Shown one piece after another: positions 8,818-45,017 of a stretch of DNA of 64,000 nucleotides. This stretch comes from Fusobacterium perfoetens ATCC 29250 (GTDB taxonomy: Bacteria; Fusobacteriota; Fusobacteriia; Fusobacteriales; Fusobacteriaceae), in the NCBI GenBank assembly GCA_964239055.1, contig CAXSON010000009.1, positions 1 to 64,000 on the forward strand. Reading direction: 5' to 3'. The translations under genes and the position numbers were made by a program. Position 1 is the first letter of the stretch, and every line of letters starts with the position of its first letter. Under the pieces are notes generated by a model. The model saw nothing but the letters and a program-made list of their open reading frames with translations. It had not been told where the DNA came from and ran no database searches.

Positions 8818-8970
8818 ATAAAATTTTAAGAGATTGAAAATTTTTTCGTAATTTATGCAGTGAGTTAAACGCTAAAAAATGATATGTCTGAGGGCAAAGC
8901 CCGAGTTTATCATTTTTAGTGAAACGAACAAAATAAATAGAAAATAATTTTCACAGTATAAAATTTTATT
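8818..8970. repeat. MITE-like structured intergenic repeat, copy 1 (subfamily A)
   Basis: Terminal inverted repeats AAATTTTAAGAGATTGAAAAT / ATTTTCACAGTATAAAATTT; conserved core CGTAATTTATGCAGTGAGTTAAACGCTAAAAAATGATA-loop-TATCATTTTTAGTGAAACGAACAAAATAAATAG; the same core is seen at four other sites. Confidence 0.75.
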
Positions 8971-9025
8971 TTTTAAATATGTAGCAGCCCTAAAAATCAC
9001 TCCCCTGCCAAGGCTTTTTTAATCT

Positions 9026-11155
9026 CTATTTTCTAAGTCCTGTCATAAATTCTTCTGTATATGGTGCAACTTCAACTTCTAGTTCAGCCATATCAGCTCT
9101 TACAACAATAACATCAAGTTTATCTCCAAGATTATATATTTCTCCGCTGTCTTTATCTGCCATTGTATAATTTACTTCATCAAACTCATAATAATGAGGT
9201 GAATTTGTTACATCCCACATACATTCAACAAGTTCATCTGTTTCAATAAATACTTTTCTATTGGCAAAACCTGTAATAGTTCCTTTGAAAACTTCACCAA
9301 CCTTATCAAGCATATATTCTACAACTTTTATTTTTACACTTTCTTCTTCGGCTTTCATTGCATCTCTTTCTGTTTTAGAAATTGCAAGACAAATTCCTCC
9401 AAGAGTCTCTTCAAGTTTTTTAATATATTTTTCTTTTGGATAACCATGAAGAACTGAACCTAAAATTCTATGAATCATAAGGTCTGAATATCTTCTTATC
9501 GGAGAAGTAAAATGTGTGTAATAGCTTGATGCCAAGCCGAAATGTCCTACATTTTCTGGAGTATATCTTGCCTGTTTAAGGGCCATAAGAACCATCTTAT
9601 GAACTATAAGGCTAAGTCCTTTATCTTTTGAATCTTCTATTATTGTCTGGAATTTTTTAGGATGAATTCCCTCAGCTGAATGAATTCTGTAACCAAATTT
9701 TCCAAGAACATCATTAAGAGCTTCTATTCTCTCACTGTCTGGTTTTTCATGTGTTCTGTAAATACTTGGAATTTCCAGCCAGAAAAGTTTTTCTGCCACA
9801 GCTTCGTTAGCTTCAATCATAAAATCTTCAATTACTTTTTCAGCTTCTCCTCTGTCACGTCTTCTCAAATATTTTACTTTTTTATCTTCATCAAGAACAA
9901 CTTGAATTTCAGGAAGCTCGAAATCAATGCTTCCTCTTTTATGTTTAATTTCTCTTATTATTTTAGAAAGTTCAAGCATATTAAAGCACATTTCCTTTAT
10001 GCTTTCATACTGTTTTGTTATCTCTTCATCTCCGTCAAAAATTTTATTTACATTATCATATGTCATACGAAAAGCTGTTTTTATTACAGATTTATATGTA
10101 TCTGCTGAAACAACTTTTCCATCTGGAGCTATCTCCATATCACAAGTAAAAGTAAGTTTATCTTCATTTGGATTTAACGAACAAATTCCATTTGAAATTT
10201 CTTTTGGAAGCATTGGAAGAACTCTGTCCACAAGATAAACTGAATTTCCTCTTTTTAATGCCTCTTTATCAAGAGCTGTTCCTTCTTTTACATAATGACT
10301 TACATCTGCAATGCTGACTATAAGTCTATAATTTCCATTTTCAAGTTTTTCAACATAGACAGCATCATCAAGGTCTTTTGCATCTGCTCCGTCAATAGTT
10401 ATTATTGGAAGATTTCTCAAATCTTTTCTGCCCTCATATTCTTCTTTTGAAATTTCTGTTTTAATATTTCTTGCTTCACTTAAAACTTCATCAGGAAATT
10501 CTGGATTTAATCCTGTTCTTTTTATAAGAGCTTCTATCATTACATCACTGTCTAAAGGATTTCCAAGTTTTTCAACAATTTTTCCCTCTGGCTTTCTGTC
10601 TTTATCTCCCCAGAAATCAATTTTAACAAGAACAAGATCTCCGTCTTCAGCCATTTTTAAATATTTTTTCGGGATATATATATCCTGTCCGAAAGAGTGT
10701 GTAGGAACAACAAAACCAAAATCTTTTCTTTTTGATAAAATTCCAACAACAGTATCATTTTCTCTTTTTATGATTTTAACAACTTCTCCTTCTCTTTTTC
10801 CATCTTTGAAGCTGCTCTCTCTAATTCTTGCAAGAACAGTATCGCCATTTAAAGCTCCGTTAAAATCTCTTCTTGGAATAAAAAATCCCTCTTCTTCCGT
10901 ATCAACAAAAGCAAATTTATTTTTTACTACCGAAAATGTTCCTTTTACAATTCCAACATTCTCAGGCACATTGTATCTTCCTTTATTATTTTTTACAATT
11001 TCCCCTGCTTCAACCCAAGAATTTACTATTTCTCTGTTTTCTTTTTTAAATTTAGGAGACCAGCCAAGTATACTGTAAATTTCGTCAAGAGTTAAAGATT
11101 TTTTTCTCTCGTTCAAATTCTTTTTTAATTTCTGTAAATCTTTTTCTATGTTCAT
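9026..11155 (-). CDS. rnr: Ribonuclease R
   Basis: 709 aa with RNB catalytic region (IDGADAKDLDDAV) and C-terminal S1 domain. Confidence 0.85.
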   Translation of the reverse strand: MNIEKDLQKLKKNLNERKKSLTLDEIYSILGWSPKFKKENREIVNSWVEAGEIVKNNKGRYNVPENVGIVKGTFSVVKNKFAFVDTEEEGFFIPRRDFNGALNGDTVLARIRESSFKDGKREGEVVKIIKRENDTVVGILSKRKDFGFVVPTHSFGQDIYIPKKYLKMAEDGDLVLVKIDFWGDKDRKPEGKIVEKLGNPLDSDVMIEALIKRTGLNPEFPDEVLSEARNIKTEISKEEYEGRKDLRNLPIITIDGADAKDLDDAVYVEKLENGNYRLIVSIADVSHYVKEGTALDKEALKRGNSVYLVDRVLPMLPKEISNGICSLNPNEDKLTFTCDMEIAPDGKVVSADTYKSVIKTAFRMTYDNVNKIFDGDEEITKQYESIKEMCFNMLELSKIIREIKHKRGSIDFELPEIQVVLDEDKKVKYLRRRDRGEAEKVIEDFMIEANEAVAEKLFWLEIPSIYRTHEKPDSERIEALNDVLGKFGYRIHSAEGIHPKKFQTIIEDSKDKGLSLIVHKMVLMALKQARYTPENVGHFGLASSYYTHFTSPIRRYSDLMIHRILGSVLHGYPKEKYIKKLEETLGGICLAISKTERDAMKAEEESVKIKVVEYMLDKVGEVFKGTITGFANRKVFIETDELVECMWDVTNSPHYYEFDEVNYTMADKDSGEIYNLGDKLDVIVVRADMAELEVEVAPYTEEFMTGLRK

Positions 11156-11159
11156 TTTC

Positions 11160-11723
11160 TCATCTCCTTTTATTTTTTATAAGATCATCTCTCATTTTAA
11201 TTGTATCTATATGTATTATACCACCTTTTTCTTTTAAATATTCTATTTTTCTATTAACTTCCATTATTATTCCACTGTCTAAATCTTTTAATGTTTCTTT
11301 TCTTATTTCATCTACACACGGATAATTTCTTCCCATCTCTATTGCATCGCCTATATATACTATTTTTTCAAGAATAGACATATTTTCTCTTCCAATAGTA
11401 TGATATTTTATAGCATTTAAAATATCGTTGTCTTTTATTCCAAATTCTTTTTCTGCAGCCATCCCACCTGCAAAACCATGAAGAATTTCAAAAAGAGTTT
11501 CATATCCTTTTATTTCTGGAACATCTTTACACATTTCTTTTAAAATTTCTATATTTGTTTCTTTCATATAATCGTGAAGAAGAGCAGAAATTCTTGCTTT
11601 TTCTGTATCAACCCCATTCTTTTCAGCTAAAATCACACACATTTCCTCTACACCTAAAACATGTTTAAATCTTTTTGCTGAAAGTTTTTCTTTTACTTTT
11701 TCTCTTAATTTATCTATATCCAT
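11160..11723 (-). CDS. yqeK: HD-domain hydrolase YqeK (bis(5'-nucleosyl)-tetraphosphatase-like)
   Basis: HD motif (HSLGV-like HVLGV..LLHD); probable start at the internal Met with AGGAGAG RBS (11723), not at 11783. Confidence 0.65.
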   Translation of the reverse strand: MDIDKLREKVKEKLSAKRFKHVLGVEEMCVILAEKNGVDTEKARISALLHDYMKETNIEILKEMCKDVPEIKGYETLFEILHGFAGGMAAEKEFGIKDNDILNAIKYHTIGRENMSILEKIVYIGDAIEMGRNYPCVDEIRKETLKDLDSGIIMEVNRKIEYLKEKGGIIHIDTIKMRDDLIKNKRR

Positions 11724-11792
11724 TTTTTCTCTCCTTATTTCTAAAAAAAGCTGTTGTATTATAAAATAGATAAAATACAACAACTTTTATTA

Positions 11793-12416
11793 CTAGATAT
11801 CTTTTTTATATTTATAATCTTTCAATAAATTTGCATACTTAACTTTTTCTAAATCAGCATTATTTATTAAAATTCTCACACTATCTATCCCACCTGCATT
11901 AGTAAGAGAATTTACAAAAGAATAAATAATAAGAAGTTCTGATTTTGCATTTGTCACATTGTCAAAAATCTTTTCTGGAAGATCTAAATATATTTTTTTA
12001 TCTAAAATATAATAAACAATATCTTTCTTATCAATTTCAGGAACAAAATTTCCTTCTTCAAGTTTTTTCAAAGTTTCAAAAATTGTTGCTTTTAAAAACT
12101 CATCTTTAGATTTTACTTTTGGAACTACAATTTCTTCATTTGTAATGCTGTTATCTTTTGGATAAAAAACATATATTTTATCATTTTCCTCTTTTACTGT
12201 TCCATCTGTTCTTGTAAAAACAATTTCTGGAGATTTTGCTCTTGCTTCAATTCTGTGATTTACAAATCCTAAAATAACTGCAGCAATCCACATTGCCCCC
12301 ATTATCATATACATTTTTTCTTTTGTTATTTTTCTTTTTTCAGTTTTTTCTTCAGATGATTTTTCAATAACTTTTTCGCTGTTTTTAATATTTTTTTCTT
12401 TCAAATTTTTAAACAT
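11793..12416 (-). CDS. Membrane-anchored GerMN-domain protein
   Basis: N-terminal TM helix; C-terminal GerMN-like region (SLTNAGGIDSVRILINN). Confidence 0.45.
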   Translation of the reverse strand: MFKNLKEKNIKNSEKVIEKSSEEKTEKRKITKEKMYMIMGAMWIAAVILGFVNHRIEARAKSPEIVFTRTDGTVKEENDKIYVFYPKDNSITNEEIVVPKVKSKDEFLKATIFETLKKLEEGNFVPEIDKKDIVYYILDKKIYLDLPEKIFDNVTNAKSELLIIYSFVNSLTNAGGIDSVRILINNADLEKVKYANLLKDYKYKKDI

Positions 12417-12430
12417 ATTTTTCTCCCAAA

Positions 12431-13456
12431 TTAATAAAAATATTTTCTCACATGTTCTGCTATTTTCTGAGCCATTATTTTTTGATTTGTTCTGTTTGTC
12501 ATTTTTCTGTGATCTTCAGGATTTCTTATAAATCCAAGTTCAATAAGAATTCCCGGACTGCTTATCCCTCTTAAAACAGCAAAGTTTGCTCCGTGAATTC
12601 CTCTGTCTTTCATTCTCATCCTTGCAGAAAGATCTCTGTTCAGCCCCTCTGCCAGTTTAATTGATTTTTCCTGATTTTTATTATAGGCTATCTGCCCCAT
12701 TATCTGCACAATGCTGTTTGCATCTTCACCATATTTTGCACCAACACTGTTTTCAAATTCTGCTATTCTTTCAGCATAAGGAGAAGATTTTTTAGAAAAA
12801 TAAAATATTTCCATTCCGCTTAATTTTGAATTTTCAGCAGAGTTTATATGAACACTTATAAATAAATCTGCACCTATTCCGTTTGAAATCTTGCTTCTAT
12901 TAGTAAGTGTTATAAATTCATCAGAATCCCTTGTCATAACAACATTAAAGTCTTTTTTAAGTTCATCACGAAGATATTTCCCAACTGCAAGAGCTATATC
13001 TTTTTCTTTTGTTCCGCCAATTCCTATTGCTCCAGGATCTTTTCCCCCATGTCCCGGGTCAATTACAACAGTATATTGTTTATTCTGGGCATTTTTAGAA
13101 AAATCAACAACAACTCTGTTTGGATTTTTTCTTAAAGAAACTTTGTGAAATATATTTTTATTAAGTGTCACAAAATATCCGCTGGAAGTTCCATAATCTA
13201 CTCTCTGAACTTTTTCTATATATTTAGGAAGTCCGTTTCTTGTATTTTTATCTTTTGCTGAAGAATTATTTCCGATATCCAGAAAAAGAAGTCTGTTATA
13301 TTCATCATAATCTGCGGAATAAACAGGAGCATCTTCACTCAAATCAAAAACCATCTGTGGAGGATATTCATTAAATCTAACTTTTTCCACCACCGATCCA
13401 AACGAAAATATTGTTGCTGCTAAAAACAGCAATACAGCAAATATTTTTTTCTGCAT
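12431..13456 (-). CDS. N-acetylmuramoyl-L-alanine amidase (Amidase_3 family)
   Basis: VVIDPGHGGKDPGAIG zinc-amidase motif; signal peptide; start assigned to the Met preceded by an AGGAGGAAG RBS. Confidence 0.8.
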   Translation of the reverse strand: MQKKIFAVLLFLAATIFSFGSVVEKVRFNEYPPQMVFDLSEDAPVYSADYDEYNRLLFLDIGNNSSAKDKNTRNGLPKYIEKVQRVDYGTSSGYFVTLNKNIFHKVSLRKNPNRVVVDFSKNAQNKQYTVVIDPGHGGKDPGAIGIGGTKEKDIALAVGKYLRDELKKDFNVVMTRDSDEFITLTNRSKISNGIGADLFISVHINSAENSKLSGMEIFYFSKKSSPYAERIAEFENSVGAKYGEDANSIVQIMGQIAYNKNQEKSIKLAEGLNRDLSARMRMKDRGIHGANFAVLRGISSPGILIELGFIRNPEDHRKMTNRTNQKIMAQKIAEHVRKYFY

Positions 13457-13547
13457 TTTTGCTTCCTCCTGATTTATTCCATAAATTACAAAAAAGAGGA
13501 CAACATCAAATAAAACTTTCAAGCTGTCCTCTTTAATTTTTATTTAA

Positions 13548-13817
13548 CTATTTTAAAACTACTGCTACTGCTGATTTTCTTATTGTAAGGTTAACTCCTT
13601 TGTCAACTCTTACTTGGATATAGTCATCTTCTACTGATGATACAGTTCCTTTTATTCCACCAATAGTTACTATTTCATTCCCTTCTTTAAGAGAATCCAT
13701 CATATCTTTTTGTTTTTTCTGTTTCTTTTTATTTGGTAATATCATAAAGAAGTATATAATTGCAATCCAAACAGCAATCATTATGAAAGTACCATATTTA
13801 GCCATTATTTCATTCAT
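13548..13817 (-). CDS. yajC: Preprotein translocase subunit YajC
   Basis: 89 aa, single N-terminal TM helix, KKQ-rich linker, YajC-like C-terminus. Confidence 0.75.
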   Translation of the reverse strand: MNEIMAKYGTFIMIAVWIAIIYFFMILPNKKKQKKQKDMMDSLKEGNEIVTIGGIKGTVSSVEDDYIQVRVDKGVNLTIRKSAVAVVLK

Positions 13818-13910
13818 ACTTTTACTTTCCTCCCAGAAATTTTTATATTTTGCTCAATTTAAAGTATATCATAGAGAGAGTTATTTTTCAATCTCCCTTT
13901 ATTTTTAAAA

Positions 13911-15077
13911 CTATCCTCTGAAGAAATCTTTAAATCTTTCTATAAAACTTTTATTCATTTTATAATTTTTTTCTTTAAGACTTTCATCAAATTTTCTTAA
14001 AAGTTCCTGCTGATCATCAGTTAAATTTGTAGGAACTTCTATTATAATTTTTACAAGCTGGTCTCCAGGAACATATCCTCTAGGATTATTTATTCCCTCA
14101 CCTTTTAATCTAAATACTTTTCCATTTTGAGTTCCTGCTGGAATTTTTATACTTTTCTTTCCTTTTAATGTAGGAATATCAATTTCTCCACCAAGAGCAG
14201 CTTTTGCAAACGTAATAGGAATTTCACAGATAATATCATCACCATGTCTTACAAAGAAATCATGTTCTTTTACATGAATAAAGATATATAAATCTCCGTT
14301 TGGTCCTCCCTCTGTACTTGCATCTCCCATTCCAGAAAGTCTTAATCTTTGTCCGTCTTCTATACCAATAGGAATTTTAACTGTTTTCTTAACTGTTTCT
14401 CTTTCAAGTCCTGTTCCATTACAAGATTTACATTTCTTTTCAGGGATTTTTCCTTTACCTTTACATTTATCACATTCTTCAACACTTTGGAAGTTTCCAA
14501 AAACTGTTCTTTGAGTAACTTTAATTTTTCCTGTTCCATTACATTTATCACAAGTTTTTAAATTGCTTCCAGGTTCTGCACCTGTTCCGTTGCAAGTTTT
14601 ACATTTTGCTTGTCTTCTATAATTTATTTCTTTCTCAACACCTTTTGCCACTTCTTCAAGAGTAAGTGTAACATCAACTCTTAAATCAGCTCCAGGTTCT
14701 GGTCCTCTCTGTCTTCCTCCGCCGAAGCCACCAAAACCTCCGCCTCCGCCAAAGAATGATGAGAATATATCTTCAGCATTTCCAAATCCTTCAAATCCGC
14801 CGAAACCGCCAAATCCTCCAGCTCCGCCTCCGCCGTTTTCAAAAGCAGCATGACCAAATCTATCGTATTTAGCTCTCTTGTCTGCATCAGAAAGAACTTG
14901 ATAAGCTTCATTTACTTCCTTAAATTTTTCTTCAGCTTCTTTTTTTTCTTTCTCACTTGCATTACTGAATTTATCAGGGTGATATTTCATTGCCAATTTT
15001 CTATATGCTTTTTTTATGTCATTTTCACTGGCTGTTTTCTCTACCCCTAAAAGATCATAATAATCTTTTTTGCTCAT
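13911..15077 (-). CDS. dnaJ: Chaperone DnaJ
   Basis: J domain with HPD (KYHPDK); Gly/Phe-rich region; four CxxCxGxG zinc-finger repeats. Confidence 0.95.
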
Positions 15078-15107
15078 TTTTTATTCCTCCAAACTACAAA
15101 CTTATTA

Positions 15108-15986: not shown

Positions 15987-15997
15987 CTTCTATCTCC

Positions 15998-16468: not shown

Positions 16469-16553
16469 GGTCCTCCAAATATTTCCTCTATATAAAGTAA
16501 TTGGGAATAGAGAACTCCTCTATTCCCAACTAAATCTTATAACTTAACTGTCA

Positions 16554-18386
<1,833 letters not shown>

Positions 18387-19009: not shown

Positions 19010-19020
19010 TTTTCAACTCC

Positions 19021-20093: not shown

Positions 20094-20275
20094 CCACATA
20101 CATAATGTACTATACTTTTTTTTATTTGTCAATATTTTTTTAGCCACATTTATATACACCTGCTAAAAATTGTTTATAACTTTTTATTTTTCAAAATCAT
20201 AAAACGATAGCCACCCTATAAAATTTTTTCAAAAAACAAAAAAAGGGGCTGTTGCATTTTCTAAATTGTAAAAAT

Positions 20276-20420
20276 AAAATTTTAGGAGATTGAAAATATT
20301 TTTGTGATTTATGAAGTGAGTTGAACGTTAAAAAATGACATGTTTGAACGAAGTGAGTTTGTCATTTTTAGTGAAACGAACAATATAAATAAAAAATATT
20401 TTCACGGTATAAAATTTTAT
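20276..20420. repeat. MITE-like structured intergenic repeat, copy 2 (subfamily A)
   Basis: TIRs AAATTTTAGGAGATTGAAAAT / TTTTCACGGTATAAAATTT; core hairpin has a compensatory variant AAAATGACA...TGTCATTTT. Confidence 0.75.
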
Positions 20421-20454
20421 TTTTACAGGTTTGCAACAACCCCCTTTTTATAAT

Positions 20455-25503: not shown

Positions 25504-25530
25504 TTCAAGTGGAAAACAATAAATAATATG

Positions 25531-25684
25531 AACTAGAGGAGCTTTAATCGGCTGAGAGGAGATTCGTTCTCGACTCTTATTACCTGAACCGGATAATACC
25601 GGCGTAGGAAAGTTATGAAGAAATTTTTTATATTTTTTTATAAAAATAAAACTCTAGTTTATATTAAGCTGGAGTTTTTTTATT
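25531..25684 (+). ncRNA. TPP (THI-box) riboswitch with terminator expression platform
   Basis: GGCTGAGAGG...CTGAACCGGATAATACCGGCGTAGGAA, matching the THI-element core; followed by aaactctag...ctggagttt hairpin and a T-run (25648-25684). Confidence 0.85.
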
Positions 25685-26400: not shown

Positions 26401-26613
26401 ATGGAAATCATCTTAAACGGAAAAAAAGTTCCTCTTGAAAAAGAAATGACTGTGTCAGAATTTATAGAAAATCTTGGAAAAGAAAAAAATATGAATCTTT
26501 CTGGTGCTGTTGTCCTTATCGATGATGATGTAGTTAAAAAAGCTGACTGGGACAAATCTTTTGTAAAAGCTGGAGCTGCTGTTGAAGTTCTTGCTTTTGT
26601 ATCAGGTGGATAA
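26401..26613 (+). CDS. thiS: Sulfur-carrier protein ThiS
   Basis: 70 aa ending in GG; sits in the thi operon. Confidence 0.8.
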   Translation: MEIILNGKKVPLEKEMTVSEFIENLGKEKNMNLSGAVVLIDDDVVKKADWDKSFVKAGAAVEVLAFVSGG

Positions 26614-26628
26614 AAAATATAACAAACT

Positions 26629-26815
26629 CTCGGCATTAAAATTATTTCCGTGATTTATGCAGTGAGTTGAACGCTAAAAAATGATATGTTTGAGCAAGAA
26701 CGAGTTTATCATTTTTAGTGAAACGAACAAAATAAATAGGAAAAAATTTTACCAGCCGAGCAATTTTCTTTGCATACTTTCTTTGGCTGCATAAAGAAAG
26801 TATGAAATAATTTAA
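26629..26815. repeat. MITE-like structured intergenic repeat, copy 3 (subfamily B), inside the thi operon, with appended hairpin
   Basis: TIRs CTCGGCATTAAAAT / ATTTTACCAGCCGAG; conserved core; additional hairpin catactttcttt..aaagaaagtatg at 26784-26815. Confidence 0.75.
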
Positions 26816-32948: not shown

Positions 32949-33004
32949 GACTTTTAATATAGTTTTTTGTATTACACAAAATCTATATTGAAAGTCTTTT
33001 TTTA
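32949..33004 (+). terminator. Strong intrinsic terminator after the MATE gene
   Basis: 14-bp stem gacttttaatatag / ctatattgaaagtc followed by TTTTTTTT. Confidence 0.7.
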
Positions 33005-33019
33005 TTAATAAAAAAATTT

Positions 33020-33260
33020 CCCTGCATTGAAAAAAATTTCGTGATTTATGCAGCGAACTGAACGCTAAAAAATGATATGTTTGAGGGCAAAGCCCGAGTT
33101 TATCATTTTTAGTGAAGTGAGCAAAATAAATAGAAAATTTTTCACCAGCAGGGCGGGTTTCTTTTCGGATATGCAGAAGACGAACAACTGATAAAAAGTT
33201 CGGCGACTAGCAGAGCCGACGAACCGAGAAATTTTATTTATTAAATTTCTTGGTTTGCTC
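33020..33260. repeat. MITE-like structured intergenic repeat, copy 4 (subfamily B), with GC-rich 3' extension
   Basis: TIRs CCCTGCATTGAAAAA / TTTTCACCAGCAGGGC (33020-33156); followed by an unusually GC-rich hairpin-forming segment gttcggcgactagcagagccgacgaac. Confidence 0.7.
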
Positions 33261-33317
33261 ATCTTTTAAAAAATAATTTATTTATAAAAAATTTAATATA
33301 TATAAAAGGAGCAAACA

Positions 33318-36327: not shown

Positions 36328-36377
36328 ATTTTGTAACTGTTTTCACAAAAATTAATCTATATTAGCGGAGGAAATAT

Positions 36378-36584: not shown

Positions 36585-36591
36585 AAAAACA

Positions 36592-36631
36592 AAAGGATTG
36601 CTGAATATAATTTCACAGCAATCCTTTTTTT
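36592..36631 (+). terminator. Intrinsic terminator
   Basis: aaaggattgctg...cagcaatccttt hairpin followed by TTTTTTT. Confidence 0.7.
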
Positions 36632-36708
36632 ATTGTTAACTTTTCAAAATTTAAAAATTTACTTTAAAAGATTTCTATTTTAAAATAAAATCTTGGAGGT
36701 GTTTTTGT

Positions 36709-37680: not shown

Positions 37681-37767
37681 ATATACATTTATATTATTTT
37701 TATGTGAATATTTTTCTGAATATGTTATAATTTTTATGAATCAAATATATTTAAGAGGTATTTATTT

Positions 37768-39048: not shown

Positions 39049-39189
39049 AATATTTTTACAGGCAGTACAATTTTGTGCTGTCTTTTTTATTTTACATTTA
39101 AAACATATCTGCTTACCATTTTCAGTCTATTTCAAAAAAGTATATTTTTTGTATTTTATTTATAAAAAATATTTTTTTTCAGAACACTA

Positions 39190-39218
39190 TTGACAATTTT
39201 TAAAAAATATAATATACT
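39190..39218 (+). promoter_or_regulatory. Promoter TTGACA-17-TATACT for the DUF3100-M20 operon
   Basis: Consensus hexamers with 17-nt spacer, followed by small hairpin agtcctattaaggact. Confidence 0.5.
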
Positions 39219-39277
39219 TCTATCAAATAAAAGTCCTATTAAGGACAATGACTAAAATGAGATTTAGGGAGGATAAT

Positions 39278-40096
39278 ATGAAAAATTCTTTGTTAAAAGT
39301 TGTAATAACTACTCTTATTATCGTAGTTGTTACTGAAATGATTGGTAAAATTTCCATTCCAATTTGGAAAGTCAGCATTGTTTTATTCCCAATGTTATAT
39401 GCTGTTGTAATTGGCCTTTTCATCACACCTGATTTACTTGGAAGTAAAATTACTGCACTGAAAAAAATAATCAACCAAGATGAAATTAAACTTGCTGGAG
39501 AATTTGTTGCAATGGGACTTCTTATTCTTGGAGTTAAATATGGTACTCTTGCAGGACCAAATGTTCAAAAAATATTAGCTGCCGGACCTGCTTTCCTTGC
39601 ACAAGAATGCGGACATATTTTATCACCAATAGTTGCACTTCCTTTAGCTCTTTTCCTAGGAATGAAAAGAGAAGCAATTGGAGCAACATCAAGTATAAGC
39701 AGAGAACCTTCTCTTGGAGTTATCGGAGAAAAATACGGAATAGATTCTCCTGAAGGAAGCGGAGTTTTAGGAACTTACCTTATAGGAACTGTTATAGGAA
39801 CAATAATATTCGGAATTTTAGGTTCTGTTTCAATATATTCAGGAATTCACCCTTATGCACTAGGAATGGCATGCGGAGTTGGAAGCGGAAGTATGATGAG
39901 TGCTGCATCAGCTGCTCTTGTAGAAATGGTTCCTCATGATATGCAGAGTACAGTTCTTGCCTATGCTGCAACAAGTAATATGCTTTCAGGAATAACAGGA
40001 GTAAACTTCCTTATTTTTGTAACACTGCCGCTTACAAATAAAATGTATGCTGTTTTAGAACCTATTTTAGGAAGAGGAAAAGGAGGAAAAAAATAA
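39278..40096 (+). CDS. DUF3100-family integral membrane protein
   Basis: Multi-TM; start at the ATG preceded by an AGGGAGG RBS (the ORF-track start 39248 has no RBS). Confidence 0.55.
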   Translation: MKNSLLKVVITTLIIVVVTEMIGKISIPIWKVSIVLFPMLYAVVIGLFITPDLLGSKITALKKIINQDEIKLAGEFVAMGLLILGVKYGTLAGPNVQKILAAGPAFLAQECGHILSPIVALPLALFLGMKREAIGATSSISREPSLGVIGEKYGIDSPEGSGVLGTYLIGTVIGTIIFGILGSVSIYSGIHPYALGMACGVGSGSMMSAASAALVEMVPHDMQSTVLAYAATSNMLSGITGVNFLIFVTLPLTNKMYAVLEPILGRGKGGKK

Positions 40097-40560
40097 TGAC
40101 TGTAAATATGCCAAGATTAATAAGAAACACAGGGCTTTTAGCTGTTGCAGGTATGCTTGTTTTAATTACTCAAAAAGTTGGACTTGGAATGCCTATACTA
40201 GATGCAGTTCCAGGAATGATAATTATTATTGGTGTTGCTGTTATTGCTCTTATTATAAGAGAGCTTTTTCCAAAATCAATTTTTCCTGCTTTTGGATGGG
40301 TTACAATTTTAGGTTTTCTTTTCAGTATGCCTTACAACCCTTTGTCAGTTAAATTTATGGAATATACAGACAAAATAAACTTTATGGCAATAACAACACC
40401 TCTTCTTGCTTTTGCAGGACTTTCTGTTGGAAATAAAATTGATGAACTTAAAAAAATGTCTTGGAAAATAATTTTAATTTCAATAATAGTTTTCGTAACA
40501 ATATTCTTTGCATGTGCACTTATTGCAGAAACAGTTTTAAGATTAAGAGGAGATATTTAA
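40096..40560 (+). CDS. Small integral membrane protein (partner of DUF3100)
   Basis: 154 aa, 4-5 TM helices; translationally coupled (ATAATG overlap). Confidence 0.5.
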   Translation: MTVNMPRLIRNTGLLAVAGMLVLITQKVGLGMPILDAVPGMIIIIGVAVIALIIRELFPKSIFPAFGWVTILGFLFSMPYNPLSVKFMEYTDKINFMAITTPLLAFAGLSVGNKIDELKKMSWKIILISIIVFVTIFFACALIAETVLRLRGDI

Positions 40561-40615
40561 AATCTGCAGATTATATAAAAATAAAAAGATGAAAAATCTT
40601 TAGGAGGATTTAAAA

Positions 40616-41935
40616 ATGACAAGAGAAGAATTAAAAGAAAGAGTAATAAAAGCTATCGAAGAAAATAAAGATATAATAATCGAAGCTGGAAGAAAAATAT
40701 ATAAAAACCCTGAATTTGGTTATAAAGAATTTGAAACAACAAAAACTGTAAGAGAATTCTTTAAAAATGAACTTAACGTTGAAACTGAAGATAAAATTGC
40801 TTACACTGGGTGCAGAGCAAGAGTAAACGAAGAAAAAGAAGGGCCGAAAGTTGCAATTCTTGGAGAGCTTGACGGAATATCTTGTAATGAGCACTGTGAT
40901 GCAAATGAAATAGGAGCATCTCATACTTGCGGGCATAACGTGCAGATTGCTGGTATGCTTGGAGCTGCTGTTGGTCTTATCAAATCAGGAGTATATAAAG
41001 AACTTGATGGTAAAATAGATTTCATGGCAACACCTGCTGAAGAATTTATCGAACTTGCTTACAGAAGTCAATTAAAAAAAGAAGGACATATAAAATATTT
41101 TGGCGGAAAACAAGAGCTTATCAGAAAAGGAGCTTTTGATGATGTTGATATGGCTATGATGTTCCACGTTCTTGATACAGGAGATAAAAAAGTTTTAACA
41201 GGACCTGTAAGTAACGGATTTATTGGAAAAGAAGTTAAATTTATTGGAAAAGAAGCTCATGCCGGTTCTGCTCCATATGAAGGAATAAATGCTTTAAATG
41301 CTGCTATGCTTGCAATAAATAATGTTCATGCTCAAAGAGAAACTTTCAAAGAAGCTGACAGAGTAAGATTTCATCCTATTATCACAAAAGGTGGAGATAT
41401 TGTAAACGTTGTTCCTGCAGATGTAAGAATGGAATCTTATGTAAGAGCAAGAACTATTGACAGCATGATTGATGCTAATGCTAAAGTTAACAGAGCTTTA
41501 ATGGCTGGAGCTATGGCTGTAGGAGCAAACATTGAAATTACTGAACTTCCTGGATATCTTCCAATTTTAAAACATGATGATATGGAAAAAGTTTTAAGAA
41601 AAAATTTAGAATATATCGGTCTTACAGACAATGATATAATTGAAGGTGGAGATTTCACAGGATCATTTGACTTTGGTGATGTTTCTCACATAATTCCAAC
41701 TCTTCATCCAATGTTTGGAGGAGTAAAAGGAGCATTACATACTAGAGATTATAAAATAGATGATGAAGAGTATGCTTATCTTGCTCCTGCAAAAGCAATG
41801 GCACTTACTGTTGTTGACCTTTTATTTGATGAAGCAAAAGAAGCAAAAGATATTCTTAAAAATTTCAAACCTGTAATGACAAAAGAAGAATATTTAGCAT
41901 TTATGGAATCAAATGACAAAACAATAAAAGCATAA
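40616..41935 (+). CDS. M20-family amidohydrolase/peptidase
   Basis: HTCGHN metal-binding motif; 439 aa; dimerisation-domain pattern. Confidence 0.8.
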   Translation: MTREELKERVIKAIEENKDIIIEAGRKIYKNPEFGYKEFETTKTVREFFKNELNVETEDKIAYTGCRARVNEEKEGPKVAILGELDGISCNEHCDANEIGASHTCGHNVQIAGMLGAAVGLIKSGVYKELDGKIDFMATPAEEFIELAYRSQLKKEGHIKYFGGKQELIRKGAFDDVDMAMMFHVLDTGDKKVLTGPVSNGFIGKEVKFIGKEAHAGSAPYEGINALNAAMLAINNVHAQRETFKEADRVRFHPIITKGGDIVNVVPADVRMESYVRARTIDSMIDANAKVNRALMAGAMAVGANIEITELPGYLPILKHDDMEKVLRKNLEYIGLTDNDIIEGGDFTGSFDFGDVSHIIPTLHPMFGGVKGALHTRDYKIDDEEYAYLAPAKAMALTVVDLLFDEAKEAKDILKNFKPVMTKEEYLAFMESNDKTIKA

Positions 41936-41980
41936 ATTTTAAAAATCTCATATAATTGAATAACCAAAAACCAAGTAAAC

Positions 41981-42015
41981 AAAAAAGGAAGCCTGAAAAC
42001 TTCCTTTTTGTTTTT
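41981..42015. terminator. Bidirectional intrinsic terminator
   Basis: aggaagcctgaaaacttcct hairpin with flanking A- and T-runs. Confidence 0.65.
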
Positions 42016-42019
42016 ACTT

Positions 42020-42352
42020 TTATTTTTTAAACATAAAATATACTGCACCTATCATACAAATGAAAGCATAAAGATAATTTAATTTTATCTCCTGTTTTAA
42101 ATATAAAACAGAAAAACCTGCAAAAACCACAAGAGTTATTACTTCTTGAATTATTTTCAGCTGAGCCACTGAAAAATAATTTGCTCCTATTCTGTTTGCT
42201 GGAATTGAAAAACAATATTCCAAAAATGCTATCATCCAGCTTAAAATTATTGTAAGAAAAAGATTTCTTCCTGTATGTTTAAGATGACCATACCATGCAA
42301 AAGACATAAAAATATTTGATATAAATAACATTACAACTGGTAAAAACTTCAT
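42020..42352 (-). CDS. Small DMT-superfamily membrane protein (DUF486-like, 4 TM)
   Basis: 110 aa; four hydrophobic helices; GGGGAAG RBS. Confidence 0.5.
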   Translation of the reverse strand: MKFLPVVMLFISNIFMSFAWYGHLKHTGRNLFLTIILSWMIAFLEYCFSIPANRIGANYFSVAQLKIIQEVITLVVFAGFSVLYLKQEIKLNYLYAFICMIGAVYFMFKK

Positions 42353-42451
42353 TTTTCTTCCCCTTATCCATTTTAATTTATTTTCATAACCTTAAGTTTA
42401 TAACAAAAATTAAAAATATTCAATAAGATTTAAAAAAAATTTATAAACTTA

Positions 42452-43852
42452 TTATCTCATAGAAAATAAAATTTGATCTCCAGGAAGAAGTTCTAAGGAT
42501 CCGCTCGGAGTCAGATATTCATCTCCACGCTTTACAGAAACAATATGCATTTTTGCAGAAAGGTGAAGCTCTTTTATCTGCTTGTTTGCATATTCTGAAT
42601 TTCTTGTAAGATAAAGTTTTTTAACAGCAAGTTCTTCCAGCTCATCAACCTCTACTTCAATATCGTCTGAATTTCTTTCCTCTTCAAGAAGTCCCAGCCA
42701 TTTTGCCACATGTTTAAGAGACATTCCTTGTAAAATTACAGAGAATACAACCATATAGAAAATCATATTAAACATCATCTGCGCATTATCAATATTTTCA
42801 CTTACAGCAAATATTGAAAATATAATCGGCACTGCTCCCTTAAGACCTGCCCATGAAATGAAAAATTTTTCTTTTTTATCAAGTTTAAATGGAATAAGGA
42901 CCAGATATACAACTATAAATCTTCCTACAATTATAACTAATATTGCAAGGATACTTCCTTTTACTATTACAGAAAGAAGCTGGCTTGGAAATACAAGAAG
43001 CCCCAAAATAATAAACATTGTTATCTGCATCAGCCATGAAGCTACTCTCATATTTCTCATAAAATTAATTCTATAATCAAATCTTTCATTTCCTATAAAT
43101 ATTCCCATTATATATATTGCTAAAAAACCATTTCCTTTTAATATAGTTGTAAGAGAAAAACAAATAAATAAAAACGAGATTATATGTATAATCATAAATT
43201 CTTCTCTTTTTATCTGCATAAGTCTGCTTGCAGGAATTGTAATTTTTCCAAATAAAAATCCCATTGCAAGACCTAGAATTATCTGTCTTATTAAAAATAT
43301 TATTCCTTGAAAAATATGCACATCTCCTGAAGTTGCTTTATATATTGAAAGGAAAAATAAAATAAGTGCATATGCCATTGGGTCGTTGCTTCCTGATTCA
43401 ATTTCTATTATTGTTCTTATTCTCTTTTTAAGTTTTGATTCTCCTAAGATTGACATTACTGCAGCTGCATCTGTTGAAGATACAAAAGAACCAAAAATAA
43501 GTGATTCTATAAAAGAAAAGTTTGTAAGAAAATATGTAAAAACTGCTGCTATAACTGCTGTCAGAAAAACTCCAACTGTGGCGAGCATTCCGCTTGGATA
43601 AAGTGCTGAAAGAGCATCTATTTTTTTAGTTTCCAATGCTCCAGAAAAAAGAATAAATAAAAGTGCAAAATTTCCTATGTTCTGAGCTGTTGCAAAGTCA
43701 TCAAAATATATTCCCCCTATCCCTTCTGACCCTGCTGCTATTCCTACAAAAAGGAACATTACAAGCAGAGGCACTTGTGCTGTCCTTGCAAGTCTTATTG
43801 AACACAGGCTGAAAAATAATAAAATACCGCAGATTAAAATTTTGTATTCCAT
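42452..43852 (-). CDS. nhaP2: K+/H+ (CPA1) antiporter NhaP2 with C-terminal TrkA_C domain
   Basis: N-terminal Na_H_exchanger multi-TM domain; C-terminal regulatory domain (VSVKRGDEYLTPSGSLELLPGDQILF). Confidence 0.8.
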   Translation of the reverse strand: MEYKILICGILLFFSLCSIRLARTAQVPLLVMFLFVGIAAGSEGIGGIYFDDFATAQNIGNFALLFILFSGALETKKIDALSALYPSGMLATVGVFLTAVIAAVFTYFLTNFSFIESLIFGSFVSSTDAAAVMSILGESKLKKRIRTIIEIESGSNDPMAYALILFFLSIYKATSGDVHIFQGIIFLIRQIILGLAMGFLFGKITIPASRLMQIKREEFMIIHIISFLFICFSLTTILKGNGFLAIYIMGIFIGNERFDYRINFMRNMRVASWLMQITMFIILGLLVFPSQLLSVIVKGSILAILVIIVGRFIVVYLVLIPFKLDKKEKFFISWAGLKGAVPIIFSIFAVSENIDNAQMMFNMIFYMVVFSVILQGMSLKHVAKWLGLLEEERNSDDIEVEVDELEELAVKKLYLTRNSEYANKQIKELHLSAKMHIVSVKRGDEYLTPSGSLELLPGDQILFSMR

Positions 43853-43952
43853 AGTCCCTAAATCAACTCCTCCTGTATTTTTTCCCCTCCCTTAGCCTAA
43901 TTGTACCATAATCTGTTTCTATTTTTGAACAAAAAAATATTTTTTTATTTTT

Positions 43953-43991
43953 TTGACTTATAAGTCAAAAAAAACTTGACTATATAGTCAA
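43953..43991. promoter_or_regulatory. Twin 16-bp perfect palindromes TTGACTTATAAGTCAA and TTGACTATATAGTCAA (candidate operators) overlapping the promoter
   Basis: Palindromes at 43953-43968 and 43976-43991; the second overlaps the -35/spacer of TTGACT-17-TATAAT (43976-44004); lies between divergent nhaP2 and the kinase-like gene. Confidence 0.5.
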
Positions 43992-44058
43992 TTTGATATA
44001 TAATTTTTTAATATACAAAATATTTTTATTATTTTTAGGAAGAAAAGAGGACGAAAAA

Positions 44059-44796
44059 TTGTTTAAAAAAGATATTGAAAAAATAAAAAATAAAATTTTA
44101 AATATGCTGAAAGAGAATTATAAAAATTACGAAATCAGAAAAGAGTGTCTTTCTTTACTTCATGAAGGACAGTTTGCCAATGCGGCAGTGTTCAGATATA
44201 ATGATGGAAATAATTTAGATATTACAATCAAAGATTTTTCAGGTTCTCCCTGGCTAGTTAGAAAAACTCTTGGAAGAATTTTTGTAAATATTGAAGGACA
44301 TATAATGATGAAACTTGAAAATAATCCCTCAATAACAAAAGGAGTTGTTTTCCTTTCTCCCTGCACTCTTGCTTTTAATTTTATTAAAGGAAAAGCTATA
44401 AAAGAATTTCAAGAAAAAGAAATTCCCAAAGATTTTTTTATTACATTAGAAAAAAATGTGAAAGAGATGCATAGAAGAAATATTGTCCATCTTGATTTAA
44501 GAAATCTTGGAAATGTCATAATGAGCAAAGAGGGATACCCTTATATTATAGATTTTCAATCTTGTATTTCTACAAAACATCTTCCTAAAAAATTAAGAAA
44601 AATTTTACGTGCTTCTGACTTAACTGGTGTGTATAAATGCTGGAACAGAAGATGCTCTGAACCTCTTGATGAAGAAAGAGAAGAATTTTTTAATGAATTT
44701 CAAAAAATAAGAAAACTTTGGGTGCTGAAAGGATATCCTGTTCAAAGATTTATAAGACACACAAAAGAAAAATTTTCTCAAAAAAAATCTCGGTAA
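44059..44796 (+). CDS. Kinase-fold protein (Kdo/WaaP/RIO-like)
   Basis: Catalytic-loop-like NIVHLDLRNLGNVI and DFQSC (DFG-like); VAIK-like TIKDF; likely TTG start at 44059 with RBS AGGAAGAAAAGAGG (the ORF-track start 43993 lies in the promoter). Confidence 0.5.
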   Translation: MFKKDIEKIKNKILNMLKENYKNYEIRKECLSLLHEGQFANAAVFRYNDGNNLDITIKDFSGSPWLVRKTLGRIFVNIEGHIMMKLENNPSITKGVVFLSPCTLAFNFIKGKAIKEFQEKEIPKDFFITLEKNVKEMHRRNIVHLDLRNLGNVIMSKEGYPYIIDFQSCISTKHLPKKLRKILRASDLTGVYKCWNRRCSEPLDEEREEFFNEFQKIRKLWVLKGYPVQRFIRHTKEKFSQKKSR

Positions 44797-44822
44797 TAAA
44801 AATTTTATACCGAGATTTTTTA
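44787..44822 (+). terminator. Intrinsic terminator after the kinase-like gene
   Basis: atctcggta...taccgagat hairpin followed by TTTTTT. Confidence 0.7.
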
Positions 44823-44844
44823 TTAATTATAAAATTTCCTTTAT

Positions 44845-45017
44845 CCCTGCATTGAAAAATATTTCGTAATTAATACTGTGAGCTGAACGCTCAAAAACGA
44901 CATGTTTGAACAAAGTGAGTTTGTCGTTTTTAGTGAAGCAAACAAAATTAATAGAAAAATTTTTCACCAGCAGAGCAATTTTCTTTTGGTTCGTTTTCTT
45001 TGTTTGTACAAAGAAAA
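44845..45017. repeat. MITE-like structured intergenic repeat, copy 5 (subfamily B), with appended hairpin
   Basis: TIRs CCCTGCATTGAAAAA / TTTTCACCAGCAGAGC; core hairpin has a compensatory variant AAAAACGACA...TGTCGTTTTT; extra hairpin ttctttgtttgtacaaagaaaa. Confidence 0.75.

Follow-up and report, generated by a model that had tools for sequence, protein, structure and literature searches.

A strand-specific hairpin repeat family in Fusobacterium, probably non-autonomous and of REPIN/MITE kind

We identified a family of non-coding repeats of 130-215 bp that lie between genes in Fusobacterium, each copy of which is a single long imperfect rod. The rod-like hairpin is strongly supported by the pairing data presented below. 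On balance, we favor the reading that this is a new strand-specific, non-autonomous hairpin repeat family of the REPIN/MITE kind, with a putative partner enzyme. No Rfam family matched the repeat and the searchable literature does not describe it, in agreement with the preliminary description, which recognized no named family; it is most likely a previously undescribed repeat family within the known class of small selfish bacterial hairpin repeats.

Results

Five copies of the repeat lie on one strand of the window

We scanned the window, that is, the whole 64-kb stretch of DNA that was analyzed, with a covariance model built from 47 copies. We observed exactly five matches, all on the + strand and scoring 156-167 bits; the next-best scores came from the reverse strands of the same five sites (25-37 bits), and the rest was noise (≤24 bits). 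A core 18-mer with up to three mismatches gave five matches versus 0.17 expected, and a core 30-mer gave four versus 0.00 expected. The sequence, the covariance model, and the k-mer counts thus all bear out the five intergenic, + strand sites that had first been noticed from the letters alone. The copies and their associated stems are:

8808..8986, + strand: copy 1, subfamily A (158.7 bits; rod 8818-8970)
8788-8795 with 8982-8992: outer imperfect stem of copy 1, AGGACTAC with GTAGCAGCCCT
20264..20437, + strand: copy 2, subfamily A (159 bits; rod 20276-20420)
20245-20256 with 20432-20444: outer, terminator-like stem of copy 2, GGGGCTGTTGCA with TGCAACAACCCC, with an A-run and a T-run on its flanks
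26611..26804, + strand: copy 3, a subfamily B variant (model match 26611-26785; 167.4 bits)
26629-26634 with 26755-26760: basal stem of copy 3, CTCGGC with GCCGAG, then AATTTTCTTT
26773-26804: second (3') hairpin of copy 3
33002..33178, + strand: copy 4, subfamily B (164.3 bits)
33020-33025 with 33148-33153: basal stem of copy 4, CCCTGC with GCAGGG
44825..45022, + strand: copy 5, subfamily B (model match 44825-45000; 156.3 bits)
44845-44850 with 44970-44975: basal stem of copy 5, CCCTGC with GCAGAG, then AATTTTCTTTTG
44989-45022: second (3') hairpin of copy 5

Copies 1 and 2 are each nested within a further outer stem (about 8783-8997 and about 20238-20450, respectively). The RNA fold of copy 1 has an energy of -34.9 kcal/mol (z -4.95), and copy 4 folds with -41.9 kcal/mol (z -4.7). 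The mini-hairpin GGGCAAAGCCC reported at the apex of copies 1 and 4 was confirmed. Two subfamilies had been proposed from the ends of the copies; the basal stems do differ, but copy 3 has CTCGGC/GCCGAG where copies 4 and 5 have CCCTGC/GCAGGG. No conserved open reading frame runs through the copies: with apical loops of 12, 13, and 16 nt, they differ in reading frame.

All five copies lie on the same strand irrespective of local gene direction. Copy 1 is located between RNase R and SmpB and is antisense to them because both genes are on the - strand; copy 2, upstream of hrcA, is also antisense to the adjoining - strand genes. Copies 3 and 4 are in sense orientation, the former in the interior of the thi operon between thiS and thiG, the latter flanked by genes for a MatE protein and a P-type ATPase, and copy 5 lies between convergent genes. 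A second repeat, unrelated to the family, comes after copy 4.

Pairing is preserved along the entire rod, while the ends vary

In the alignment of 47 copies, 98.7% of the cells in 35 pairs were paired (89.6% in shuffled alignments and 41-53% in slid registers), and both sides had changed in 17 of the 35 pairs. The alignment of 117 hits was paired in 97.5% of cells, with compensation in 28 of 35 pairs. Many of the compensatory differences separate subfamilies and hence amount to few independent events. None of 500 shuffles matched the pairing and compensation values of the alignments. The compensatory changes from which a preserved hairpin was originally proposed (ATGATA/TATCAT, ATGACA/TGTCAT, and ACGACA/TGTCGT in the central stem) are correct, and they turned out to be a small fraction of a far larger pattern along the rod, seen in both alignments. 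In two divergent cores (L162:3552-3728 and L171:1950-2135), the central stem was fully re-paired and the apex unchanged.

The most conserved region is an inner core of ~75 nt with the pattern TTGAACGCTAAAAAAYGAYA-TGTYTGA-(small variable C-R-N-A-G loop or mini-hairpin)-GAGTTTRTCRTTTTTAGTGAAAYRAAC, and this same core is common to four unrelated outer rods (subfamilies A-D). In subfamily B, the 6-bp base is G+C-rich and AAUUUUCUUUU comes after it on the folded strand; the long A forms have an A-run, a GC stem, and a T-run at their borders. The apical loops on the folded strand are of the C-R-N-A-G type (GCGAAGC, GCGAAAGC, and GCGTAGC), which forms unusually stable mini-hairpins in DNA. The stem variants GAGTT/AACGAAC, GAACT/AGTGAGC, and GAATT/AATGAGC are distributed as a mosaic across subfamilies.

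What had been read as terminal inverted repeats are basal stems belonging to a single continuous rod, of which they are the least conserved part; a conserved centre with variable ends is the opposite of an element whose terminal inverted repeats are recognized by a transposase. We therefore consider it very unlikely that the family is a classic MITE, an internally deleted insertion-sequence derivative whose terminal repeats are bound by a DDE transposase and whose hairpin is a mere by-product. Small size, multiple copies, lack of open reading frames, inverted ends, subfamilies, and strain polymorphism would all suit such an element, as would two clean indels flanked by short direct repeats (7 nt and 11-12 nt). 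However, subfamilies A-D have wholly different termini around a nearly invariant centre, compensatory pairing along the entire rod is not predicted by terminal-repeat recognition, and the strand asymmetry described below is unexpected under a double-stranded mechanism. Moreover, the direct repeats are always one sequence, derived from the palindrome AAAATTTT, and subfamily B has none. Of the initial classification as a non-autonomous MITE-like element, the dispersed and ORF-free character stands, but not the ends.

The repeat is strand-specific and unevenly oriented with respect to replication

The folded strand, defined by conserved unpaired or G·A positions together with wobble pairs, is the + strand of the window. 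On this strand we counted 209 G·U pairs versus 26 A·C mismatches (81 versus 24 without two fixed columns), and the excess was the same whichever chromosome strand, G-rich or C-rich, carried the folded strand (38:13, 24:8, and 19:3). Four of the five window copies folded 6-9 kcal/mol better on the + strand.

On chromosome 1 of SB021, the folded strand was on the lagging strand in 16 of 18 copies, including all 12 of the A type, and orientation followed the replichore and not local gene direction; where the two were discordant, four copies followed the replichore and one followed the gene. The bias is uneven: it is about 70:30 overall by proxy measures, subfamilies B and C show it weakly, and one MAG shows the reverse. 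A DNA-level chromosomal signal read single-stranded, such as a priming or initiation hairpin or a replication-oriented signal, would explain polarity along replichores, and the C-R-N-A-G loops on the folded strand would suit it. We nevertheless regard this as the least probable of the readings weighed here: the folded strand is on the leading-strand template, whereas it is the lagging-strand template that becomes exposed as single-stranded DNA; other genomes and subfamilies show weak polarity or none; and copies are dispensable between strains. Polarity can also come from loss, since asymmetric palindromes are lost faster by slippage when the better-folding strand is the lagging-strand template.

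Copies favor gene ends, and the folded strand is more often antisense

Among copies with both neighbors called (n = 42), 10 lay between convergent genes and one between divergent genes. Most copies were 0-60 nt from a stop codon. Many copies occupy the apex of copy-specific terminator-like hairpins: 18% of 79 A/C copies lay within a perfect copy-specific outer stem of ≥7 bp with G·C pairs, versus 2% when the same criterion was applied to mismatched flanks. Between co-oriented genes, antisense placement of the folded strand outnumbered sense placement (19:12 in the first set; 32:13 for A-type copies in a larger set). The strand on which pairing is selected is therefore, in most cases, not that of the mRNA.

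These positions bear on an alternative in which the repeat is a host-useful RNA module: the transcribed rod would be, or would extend, an intrinsic terminator or 3'-end stabilizer, or the copies would be sibling small RNAs, with the core as a protein-binding or RNase-resistant motif selected at each locus. Strong covariation, conserved non-Watson-Crick positions, strand-specific wobble pairs, placement directly after stop codons, near absence from divergent promoter regions, the G+C-rich base of subfamily B, and the bounded long A forms are in keeping with this idea. So is copy 3, which is kept at one site in three species, with compensatory differences in its orthologues in SB021 (L017) and UMGS734 (L025); this retention across species would also fit a host function. 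We still judge a host RNA unlikely, given the antisense excess, a repeat unit without a conserved promoter, sites that are dispensable within the species, the lack of an Rfam match, and the location of copy 3 in the thi operon, in which strong termination would do harm.

Presence, type, and orientation of copies vary among closely related strains

Presence/absence polymorphism between strains was observed at three of the five window sites, which are empty or differently filled elsewhere. The copy 1 site is filled in the window and in L049, L050, and L054, and is ~146 nt shorter in seven other strains. At the copy 2 site, ten other strains have a short terminator alone, and L065 reads AAAAGAACTGTTACA-GATATATAAAA-TGTAACAGTTTTTTT. 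Elsewhere, the copy 3 site is either an empty spacer with the palindrome AAAAATAAAATTTTATTTTT or holds a reversed A-type copy. All four loci retrieved with the MatE protein had the copy 4 site filled, and the copy 5 spacer in L151 and L099 contains a reversed divergent B-type copy and a forward A-type copy.

We found no convincing target-site duplication. The two clean indels have direct repeats (TATAAAA, 7 nt, and ATAAAATTTTAT, 11-12 nt) that are generated by the palindromic arm AAAATTTT and that agree with slippage deletion no less than with insertion; other remnants and deletion scars have different junctions. None of the polymorphic sites compared showed a de novo insertion whose target duplications were clean and variable.

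Part of the turnover could stem from homologous replacement of entire spacers instead of transposition, since spacers are wholly exchanged between strains with identical coding flanks. Taken further, the copies would be non-mobile, elaborate terminator hairpins spread and homogenized, from strain to strain and from locus to locus, by homologous recombination or gene conversion, with shorter forms as internal deletions. The mosaic stem variants and a graded series from outer stem only, through outer stem with arms, to full rod are compatible with this proposal, which we find highly improbable all the same: near-identical 215-nt units occur at non-syntenic loci with unrelated flanks (copy 2 of the window and L042 of SB021), two replicons carry at least 21 dispersed copies, and gene conversion requires flanking homology, which is absent here.

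Discussion

Our preferred reading remains a selfish element that would be moved in trans by a putative enzyme recognizing the folded core on one strand, perhaps via a single-stranded DNA or RNA intermediate. We infer a likeness to REPIN/RAYT or another structure-recognizing system, rather than to a DDE transposase reading terminal inverted repeats. Copies would persist where a hairpin is harmless, namely in terminator loops and in spacers between convergent genes, and may disappear when replication slips between short direct repeats made by their palindromic arms. We found no matching transposase: a Y1-transposase probe was negative, and no recurrent open reading frames occurred near copies over about 565 kb. 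The one insertion-sequence terminal repeat readable in the fetched loci was unrelated to the repeat.

REPINs are inverted REP doublets mobilized by RAYT, a domesticated Y1/HUH transposase. Like them, the Fusobacterium repeat is a non-coding, intergenic long hairpin in which structure and not terminal sequence is conserved, with copy numbers in the tens-to-hundreds class and prolonged vertical persistence accompanied by some turnover; strand-specific recognition would be expected in both. It differs in that no RAYT gene was found in the sequence examined around it, in its length (130-215 nt), ~75-nt conserved apical core, and layered outer stems, in its unrelated sequence, and in its host, a member of the Fusobacteriota, whereas REPINs occur in Proteobacteria.

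PATEs, non-autonomous IS200/IS605 derivatives, are also hairpin-dependent, strand-specific, devoid of open reading frames, and biased in orientation relative to replication. However, PATEs have two separate subterminal hairpins, at the left and right ends, on the same strand, whereas the halves of our repeat pair together in a single rod; no TnpA was found for it, and its orientation bias is of opposite sign to that reported for IS200/IS605 elements. Integron attC sites share a recombination-site-like logic and an imperfect hairpin, with unpaired conserved bases marking one strand, a variable terminal loop, and pairing kept under sequence drift. Our repeat lacks the RYYYAAC/GTTRRRY pair (only GTTGAAC is present, on one arm), an integrase, and cassette arrays, and its copies lie between housekeeping genes.

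Correia elements of Neisseria and ERIC/IRU of Enterobacteria, MITE-like palindromic repeats co-transcribed with neighboring genes, resemble it as imperfect palindromes of about 100-160 bp without open reading frames, intergenic and often in 3' regions, with subfamilies carrying internal indels and no known cognate transposase. Terminal repeats of 26 bp are conserved in Correia elements, which also have a TA duplication; our repeat has variable ends, and no such duplication was seen. Similarly, bcr1 and its relatives in the Bacillus cereus group and RUP and BOX in Streptococcus pneumoniae are dispersed repeats of roughly 100-160 bp in A+T-rich genomes, with predicted stable secondary structure and strain-variable presence. 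The target duplication is TTTAT for bcr1 and TA for RUP, which matches an IS630-type element; neither a defined target duplication nor an insertion-sequence match was seen for the Fusobacterium repeat.

A dispersed family without open reading frames, as originally proposed, is real, judging from the covariance model, k-mers, and copies in other genomes. Of the tens to hundreds of copies predicted genome-wide, tens were found, but not hundreds: the complete SB021 genome (2.27 Mb) holds at least 21, counting strict-pattern copies. About 120 related copies occur in metagenome contigs, and the plasmids and phages searched gave no match. As far as seen, the family is confined to a small clade of Fusobacterium among the places searched; a Sulfurimonadaceae MAG gave one match, to the core only.

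Five copies of one hairpin family

The preliminary description had placed five repeats in the window, and the sequence confirmed each of them at its site, all on the plus strand:

8808-8986, plus strand: copy 1, subfamily A, between the genes for RNase R and SmpB
20264-20437, plus strand: copy 2, subfamily A, upstream of hrcA
26611-26804, plus strand: copy 3, variant of subfamily B, between thiS and thiG
33002-33178, plus strand: copy 4, subfamily B, by a MatE gene
44825-45022, plus strand: copy 5, subfamily B, in the convergent spacer at 44.8 kb

One core oligomer occurs five times in the window where 0.17 matches are expected, and another four times where 0.00 are. We trained a covariance model, R1, on 47 copies and searched the 64 kb window with filters off; it returned exactly five copies at 156-167 bits, the opposite strands of these sites scored 25-37 bits, and the remainder of the window stayed at noise level. 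Rfam reported only one tmRNA, two tRNAs and one TPP riboswitch in the window, and no Rfam family at the repeats, either at gathering thresholds in the window or at E-values up to 10 in three related loci. The claim that the repeats carry no ORF also held, as no ORF was conserved across elements of 130-215 nt. We rejected coding potential: short frames vary among copies because their loop lengths differ, and substitutions are pairwise compensatory.

Among the other RNA features listed for the window, the TPP riboswitch lies 5' of the thi operon that holds copy 3:

7899-8248, minus strand: tmRNA (tag peptide GNNEYALAA) adjoining smpB, with tRNA-Lys and tRNA-Gly close by
6308-6479, minus strand, and 25525-25627, plus strand: further features listed with the tmRNA, tRNA-Lys, tRNA-Gly and TPP riboswitch

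Every copy forms one long imperfect hairpin, or rod. The apex is a small variable loop or mini-hairpin of C-R-N-A-G form (CGAAG, CGTAG, CAAAG, CATAG, GGGCAAAGCCC or GGACAAAGTCC), and conserved TGTYTGA and GAGTTT bracket the apical loop. Next outward is a 10-bp central stem (AAAAAYGAYA/TRTCRTTTTT), followed by a mid section. Its internal loops are conserved; among them are a tandem G·A/A·G mismatch, formed by GUGAGUU and AACGAAC, and a 3-by-1 loop of GAA against A. Outward of the mid section are the stems ATTTAT/ATAAAT and then GAAAA/TTTTC. The central columns are the most conserved and the terminal ones the least, and the termini differ among subfamilies A-D, which are assigned by their basal stems.

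Basal stems of the four subfamilies
Subfamily A: AAAATTTTAGGAG...CACGGTATAAAATTTT
Subfamily B: CCCTGC...GCAGGG (CTCGGC...GCCGAG in copy 3), then AATTTTCTTTTG and a second hairpin, GTTCGTTTTCTTTG-loop-CAAAGAAAATGAAC
Subfamily C: AAAATTCTCGATATT...TTCTTAGAGAATTTT
Subfamily D: the same core inside an unrelated outer rod

Within the second hairpin of copy 3 is a promoter-like site at 26783-26811, a consensus match only (TTGGCT, 17 nt, TG, AATAAT), directly 5' of the thiG ribosome-binding site; it could allow transcription to restart past the rod within the thi operon.

The rod is maintained by compensatory change and folds on one strand

The preliminary description had proposed that compensatory changes preserve the hairpin, and the larger set of copies supported this: 17-28 of the 35 supported pairs were compensated and 97.5-98.7% of cells were paired. 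Independent events are fewer than the cell counts below imply, because many differences separate subfamilies.

Pairing and compensation over 35 supported pairs
MAFFT alignment of 47 copies: 98.7% of cells paired (controls: 89.6% shuffled, 41-53% slid registers); 17/35 pairs changed on both sides, in 186 cells versus ~50 expected, reached by 0/500 shuffles
Model-fitted alignment of 117 hits, whose fitting to the model biases it toward the structure: 97.5% of cells paired (controls: 87.3% shuffled, 43-59% slid registers); 28/35 pairs changed on both sides, in 394 cells versus ~107 expected, reached by 0/500 shuffles

Individual loci, fetched from other genomes and metagenome contigs and given L-numbers, nevertheless show some clearly independent compensations. 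In L162:3552-3728 the central stem pairs anew as GCATAA/TTATGC, and in L171:1950-2135 as TTCATA/TATGAA, the apex being unaltered in both. At thiS-thiG, the window copy and its orthologue in UMGS734, a human-gut metagenome-assembled genome (MAG), differ by three compensated pairs.

We also observed that the two strands are not equivalent. On the strand corresponding to the plus strand of the window, wobble pairs outnumbered A·C mismatches by 209:26, or 81:24 without two fixed columns, and the two mid-stem C-G pairs showed U·G 13 times and C·A 0 times, in several subfamilies. A mutational bias of the replication strand might have produced such an excess; we rejected this artefact because the excess was the same whichever chromosome strand carried the folded strand (38:13 when C-rich, 24:8 when G-rich and 19:3 when neutral). 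The plus strand folded better by 6-9 kcal/mol in 4/5 window copies, and the purine-rich apical loops and G·A tandems exist on this strand only.

Distribution across genomes

An exact-pattern scan of one genome per species gave 44 loci, from SB021 (a complete Fusobacterium genome with two chromosomes; replicons CP055997 and CP055999), two human-gut MAG species (HRGM_Genome_3524 and UMGS734) and MAG071. SB021 carries at least 21 copies, 18 on chromosome 1 and 3 on chromosome 2. A metagenome scan added 101 loci, with 117 covariance-model hits. The repeat was absent from the viral contigs, plasmids and phages searched. At thiS-thiG, the surroundings in the window are 96.9% identical to those in SB021 and inverted relative to them.

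The pattern scan also gave three matches in other phyla, in Balneola, Bacillus and Sulfurimonadaceae. The Balneola and Bacillus hits, together with three metagenome contigs, had no covariance-model match and were set aside as chance. The third, a single occurrence in a Sulfurimonadaceae (Campylobacterota) MAG contig (L037:1480-1700, minus strand; JBFEJN010000075.1), comprises the inner core only, at 41.9 bits (E ~3e-5) and ~85% identity over ~60 nt, mounted on a G+C-rich, otherwise unrelated terminator-like hairpin. This core may have been transferred horizontally, may lie on a chimeric contig or may belong to a far wider family; a scan of metagenomes made for this variant gave 0 matches.

Copies vary between strains

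The repeats mark strain-variable sites. The RNase R-SmpB spacer holds a copy in the window and in three other contigs, and in seven it is ~146 nt shorter; the outer stem of one filled allele is entirely different. Upstream of hrcA, only the window has the element, and ten other strains have a short terminator, of two kinds. At the 44.8 kb convergent spacer, other strains carry a reversed, divergent B-type copy together with a forward A-type copy. The site of copy 4 was filled in 4/4 places returned for the flanking MatE protein. The thiS-thiG spacer has three alleles among strains.

Alleles of the thiS-thiG spacer
Allele 1: B-type copy, in the window, SB021 and UMGS734
Allele 2: empty spacer with the perfect palindrome AAAAATAAAATTTTATTTTT
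Allele 3: A-type copy in reverse orientation, exactly inside the palindrome AAAAATAAAATTTTATTTTT

At two clean indels there are flanking direct repeats (7 nt and 11-12 nt), always taken from the palindromic arm ATAAAATTTTAT; subfamily B flanks showed no direct repeats. Because the direct repeats belong to this arm, slippage deletion and insertion give the same product. We considered whether the 20-26 bp palindrome AAAAATAAAATTTTATTTTT might have been present beforehand as a specific target, of which 11-12 nt were duplicated. This is unlikely, since the arms, which form inverted, co-varying stems in subfamilies C and A, change together (AAAATTTTGC/GCAAAATTTT and AAAATTCTC/GAGAATTTT), and scars with other junctions exist (L109:2954 and L091:1509). 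For the same reasons, the shorter or empty alleles at the clean indels are more likely internal deletions. The hrcA and 44.8 kb sites, in turn, we treat as evidence of gain or replacement.

Unsplit perfect palindromes of 16-26 bp (AAATAAAATTTTATTT) also occur at L075:1095, L042:3315, L154:2997 and L167:1191, ~4 independent sites in 1.36 Mb against ~0.07 expected by composition; each is either a scar left by a deleted copy or a preferred site. In some strains (L049:3827-6441 and L053:3828-6297), transposase or recombinase genes (rve, DDE_Tnp_1, serine recombinase) lie 3' of smpB/tmRNA, where the window has corA, as would be expected if the tmRNA locus were a hot spot of integration.

Genomic position and a possible host RNA role

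The main rival to a mobile element is a host RNA role, in which the rod extends a terminator or stabilises 3' ends. Most of the 42 copies with both neighbours called lie 0-60 nt from a stop codon. Many A and C copies sit within an outer G+C-containing stem that is copy-specific and self-complementary, in most cases preceded by an A-run and followed by a T-run; by a strict criterion, such nesting was found for 18% of 79 copies versus 2% of mismatched flank pairs. Short terminator hairpins with similar stems (GGGGCTGTTGCA...TGCAACAGCCCC) and ordinary loops occur at other loci. Terminator-like features were also present in the subfamily B base (CCCUGC/GCAGGG, then AAUUUUCUUUU) and in long A forms (A-run, GC stem, T-run). 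A consensus terminator scan reported no terminator at the repeats because the loop far exceeds 8 nt, and consensus promoter scans found nothing conserved within the repeat unit. The host RNA role is weakened by two observations: the folded strand is more often antisense to neighbouring genes (19 antisense and 12 sense copies between co-oriented genes, with 10 between convergent and 1 between divergent genes among the same 42), and copies are dispensable between strains.

Orientation relative to replication

GC skew and ORF strand placed the origin of SB021 chromosome 1 near coordinate 0 and the terminus at 0.66-0.98 Mb. All seven copies at 32-656 kb (7/7) lie on the minus strand and 9/11 at 984-1584 kb on the plus strand, so that the folded strand is the lagging strand in 16/18 copies and in 12/12 A-type copies. 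The window's five copies share a strand, two lying among minus-strand genes, two among plus-strand genes and one between convergent genes. Copies for which replichore and local gene direction conflicted followed the replichore in four cases and the gene in one. In a larger set, which relied on proxies and partly non-independent copies, the bias was ~70:30 and significant only for A-type copies, with one MAG reversed. We therefore rejected a universal replichore polarity: strong on chromosome 1 of SB021, it does not carry over to the other genomes or subfamilies. It is established that an asymmetric palindrome is lost by deletion more rapidly if its better-folding strand serves as lagging-strand template, and differential loss could thus be a simple source of the bias.

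Relation to known mobile repeats

In bacteria, intergenic regions are shaped by small hairpin repeats, which also break up assemblies from short reads and can change termination and the stability of mRNA. The present repeat is a real family, previously undescribed in the literature searched, where nothing relevant on MITEs or on hairpin repeats between genes came up for Fusobacterium. We do not regard it as categorically new and place it among the non-autonomous hairpin repeats of bacteria (REPIN, Correia, ERIC, bcr1 and others like them); its conservation pattern is unusual and its functional strand clear.

Like a classic MITE, the repeat is small, non-coding, multi-copy and polymorphic for presence. 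The preliminary description stood in so far as it saw a small multi-copy element: the copies are multiple and non-coding, and 3/5 window sites are polymorphic between strains. Its reading of terminal inverted repeats as MITE ends was not supported as worded, as the termini are the least conserved part and no transposase adjoins the copies in the fetched loci. A DDE-mobilised MITE should have conserved terminal repeats matching those of an autonomous insertion sequence in the genomes that carry it, whereas here the ends vary among A-D and the centre is conserved. A target duplication of fixed length and variable sequence is a further MITE feature; the 7 and 11-12 nt repeats are always palindromic-arm sequence and fit slippage as well as insertion.

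The conserved centre, variable ends, rod-wide compensation and strand specificity instead argue for recognition of a folded single strand, as in REPIN/RAYT-type systems, rather than a DDE transposase acting on terminal repeats. The repeat shares with REPINs a structurally conserved hairpin of two inverted halves; on the RAYT side, the feature is a cognate single-copy Y1 (HUH) transposase gene, typically repeat-flanked. A tblastn search with an IS200 TnpA query found no Y1 transposase in 565 kb of window and loci, and all-against-all clustering of ORFs around the copies found no recurrent neighbour; the one small cluster of ORFs proved to be a spurious reading frame running across B-type copies. 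In other strains an insertion sequence lies near SmpB; its ends, the sole terminal repeat readable in the fetched loci, are unrelated, and it was rejected as a partner. IS200/IS605 PATEs have two distinct subterminal hairpins, for the left and the right end, on the same strand, and their active strand lies on the lagging-strand template, whereas the repeat is a single continuous rod with its folded strand mostly on the other strand (SB021). Integron attC sites (R''/R' core sites, RYYYAAC...GTTRRRY) adjoin an integrase and cassette arrays; the repeat fits only by GTTGAAC on the 5' arm, without a complementary core, and its neighbours are housekeeping genes.

We propose, as a speculation to which we assign a low probability, that the ~75-nt core is the recognition module of a putative structure- and strand-specific system of mobilisation that passes through an intermediate of single-stranded DNA or of RNA, or else a new protein-binding RNA motif transported on a mobile hairpin. 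As a module, the core would be graftable onto unrelated outer hairpins, as in subfamilies A-D, and would lodge preferentially at the apex of terminator hairpins; its mobilisation would leave a replichore-polarised distribution. The single core-only match in the Sulfurimonadaceae MAG would place the system outside Fusobacteriota as well.

The family is unusually informative, since its dense covariation, clear functional strand and conserved centre with variable ends point to folded single-strand recognition and not to terminal repeats. Many polished metagenome contigs of 1.6-1.7 Mb from the same species could resolve gain, loss and orientation relative to replication, and phylogenetic co-occurrence in them offers a way to seek the partner enzyme.

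Neighbouring repeats

Some copies occur as adjacent pairs, either head-to-head (reversed B-type and forward A-type) or in tandem (two D-type), at L171:1950-2322, L099:3354-3718, L151:5473-5825 and L162:3552-3898. Many terminator-like hairpins in these genomes share the stem (G)GGRCTGTTRCA...TGYAACAGYCC(C) with ordinary short loops (L065:1278, L032:897, L120:3317, L143:6908, L053:4685 and others), and 20245-20256 with 20432-20444, around copy 2, is a stem of the same type. These stems vary between strains and loci by compensated transitions and may constitute a separate terminator or repeat family.

A second, unrelated repeat family lies directly 3' of copy 4 (33160-33265, core match 33216-33253), with sequence ...CGGCGACTAGCAGAGCCGACGAACCGAGAAATTTTATTTATTAAATTTCTTGGTTTGCTC and hairpin CCGAGAAATTT/AAATTTCTTGG. 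It recurs at L124:5735-5756, at L175:7539-7762 and at L070 and L071:3272-3293. In L175, its sequence stands in for the core inside an A-type copy, an arrangement that suggests a nested insertion.
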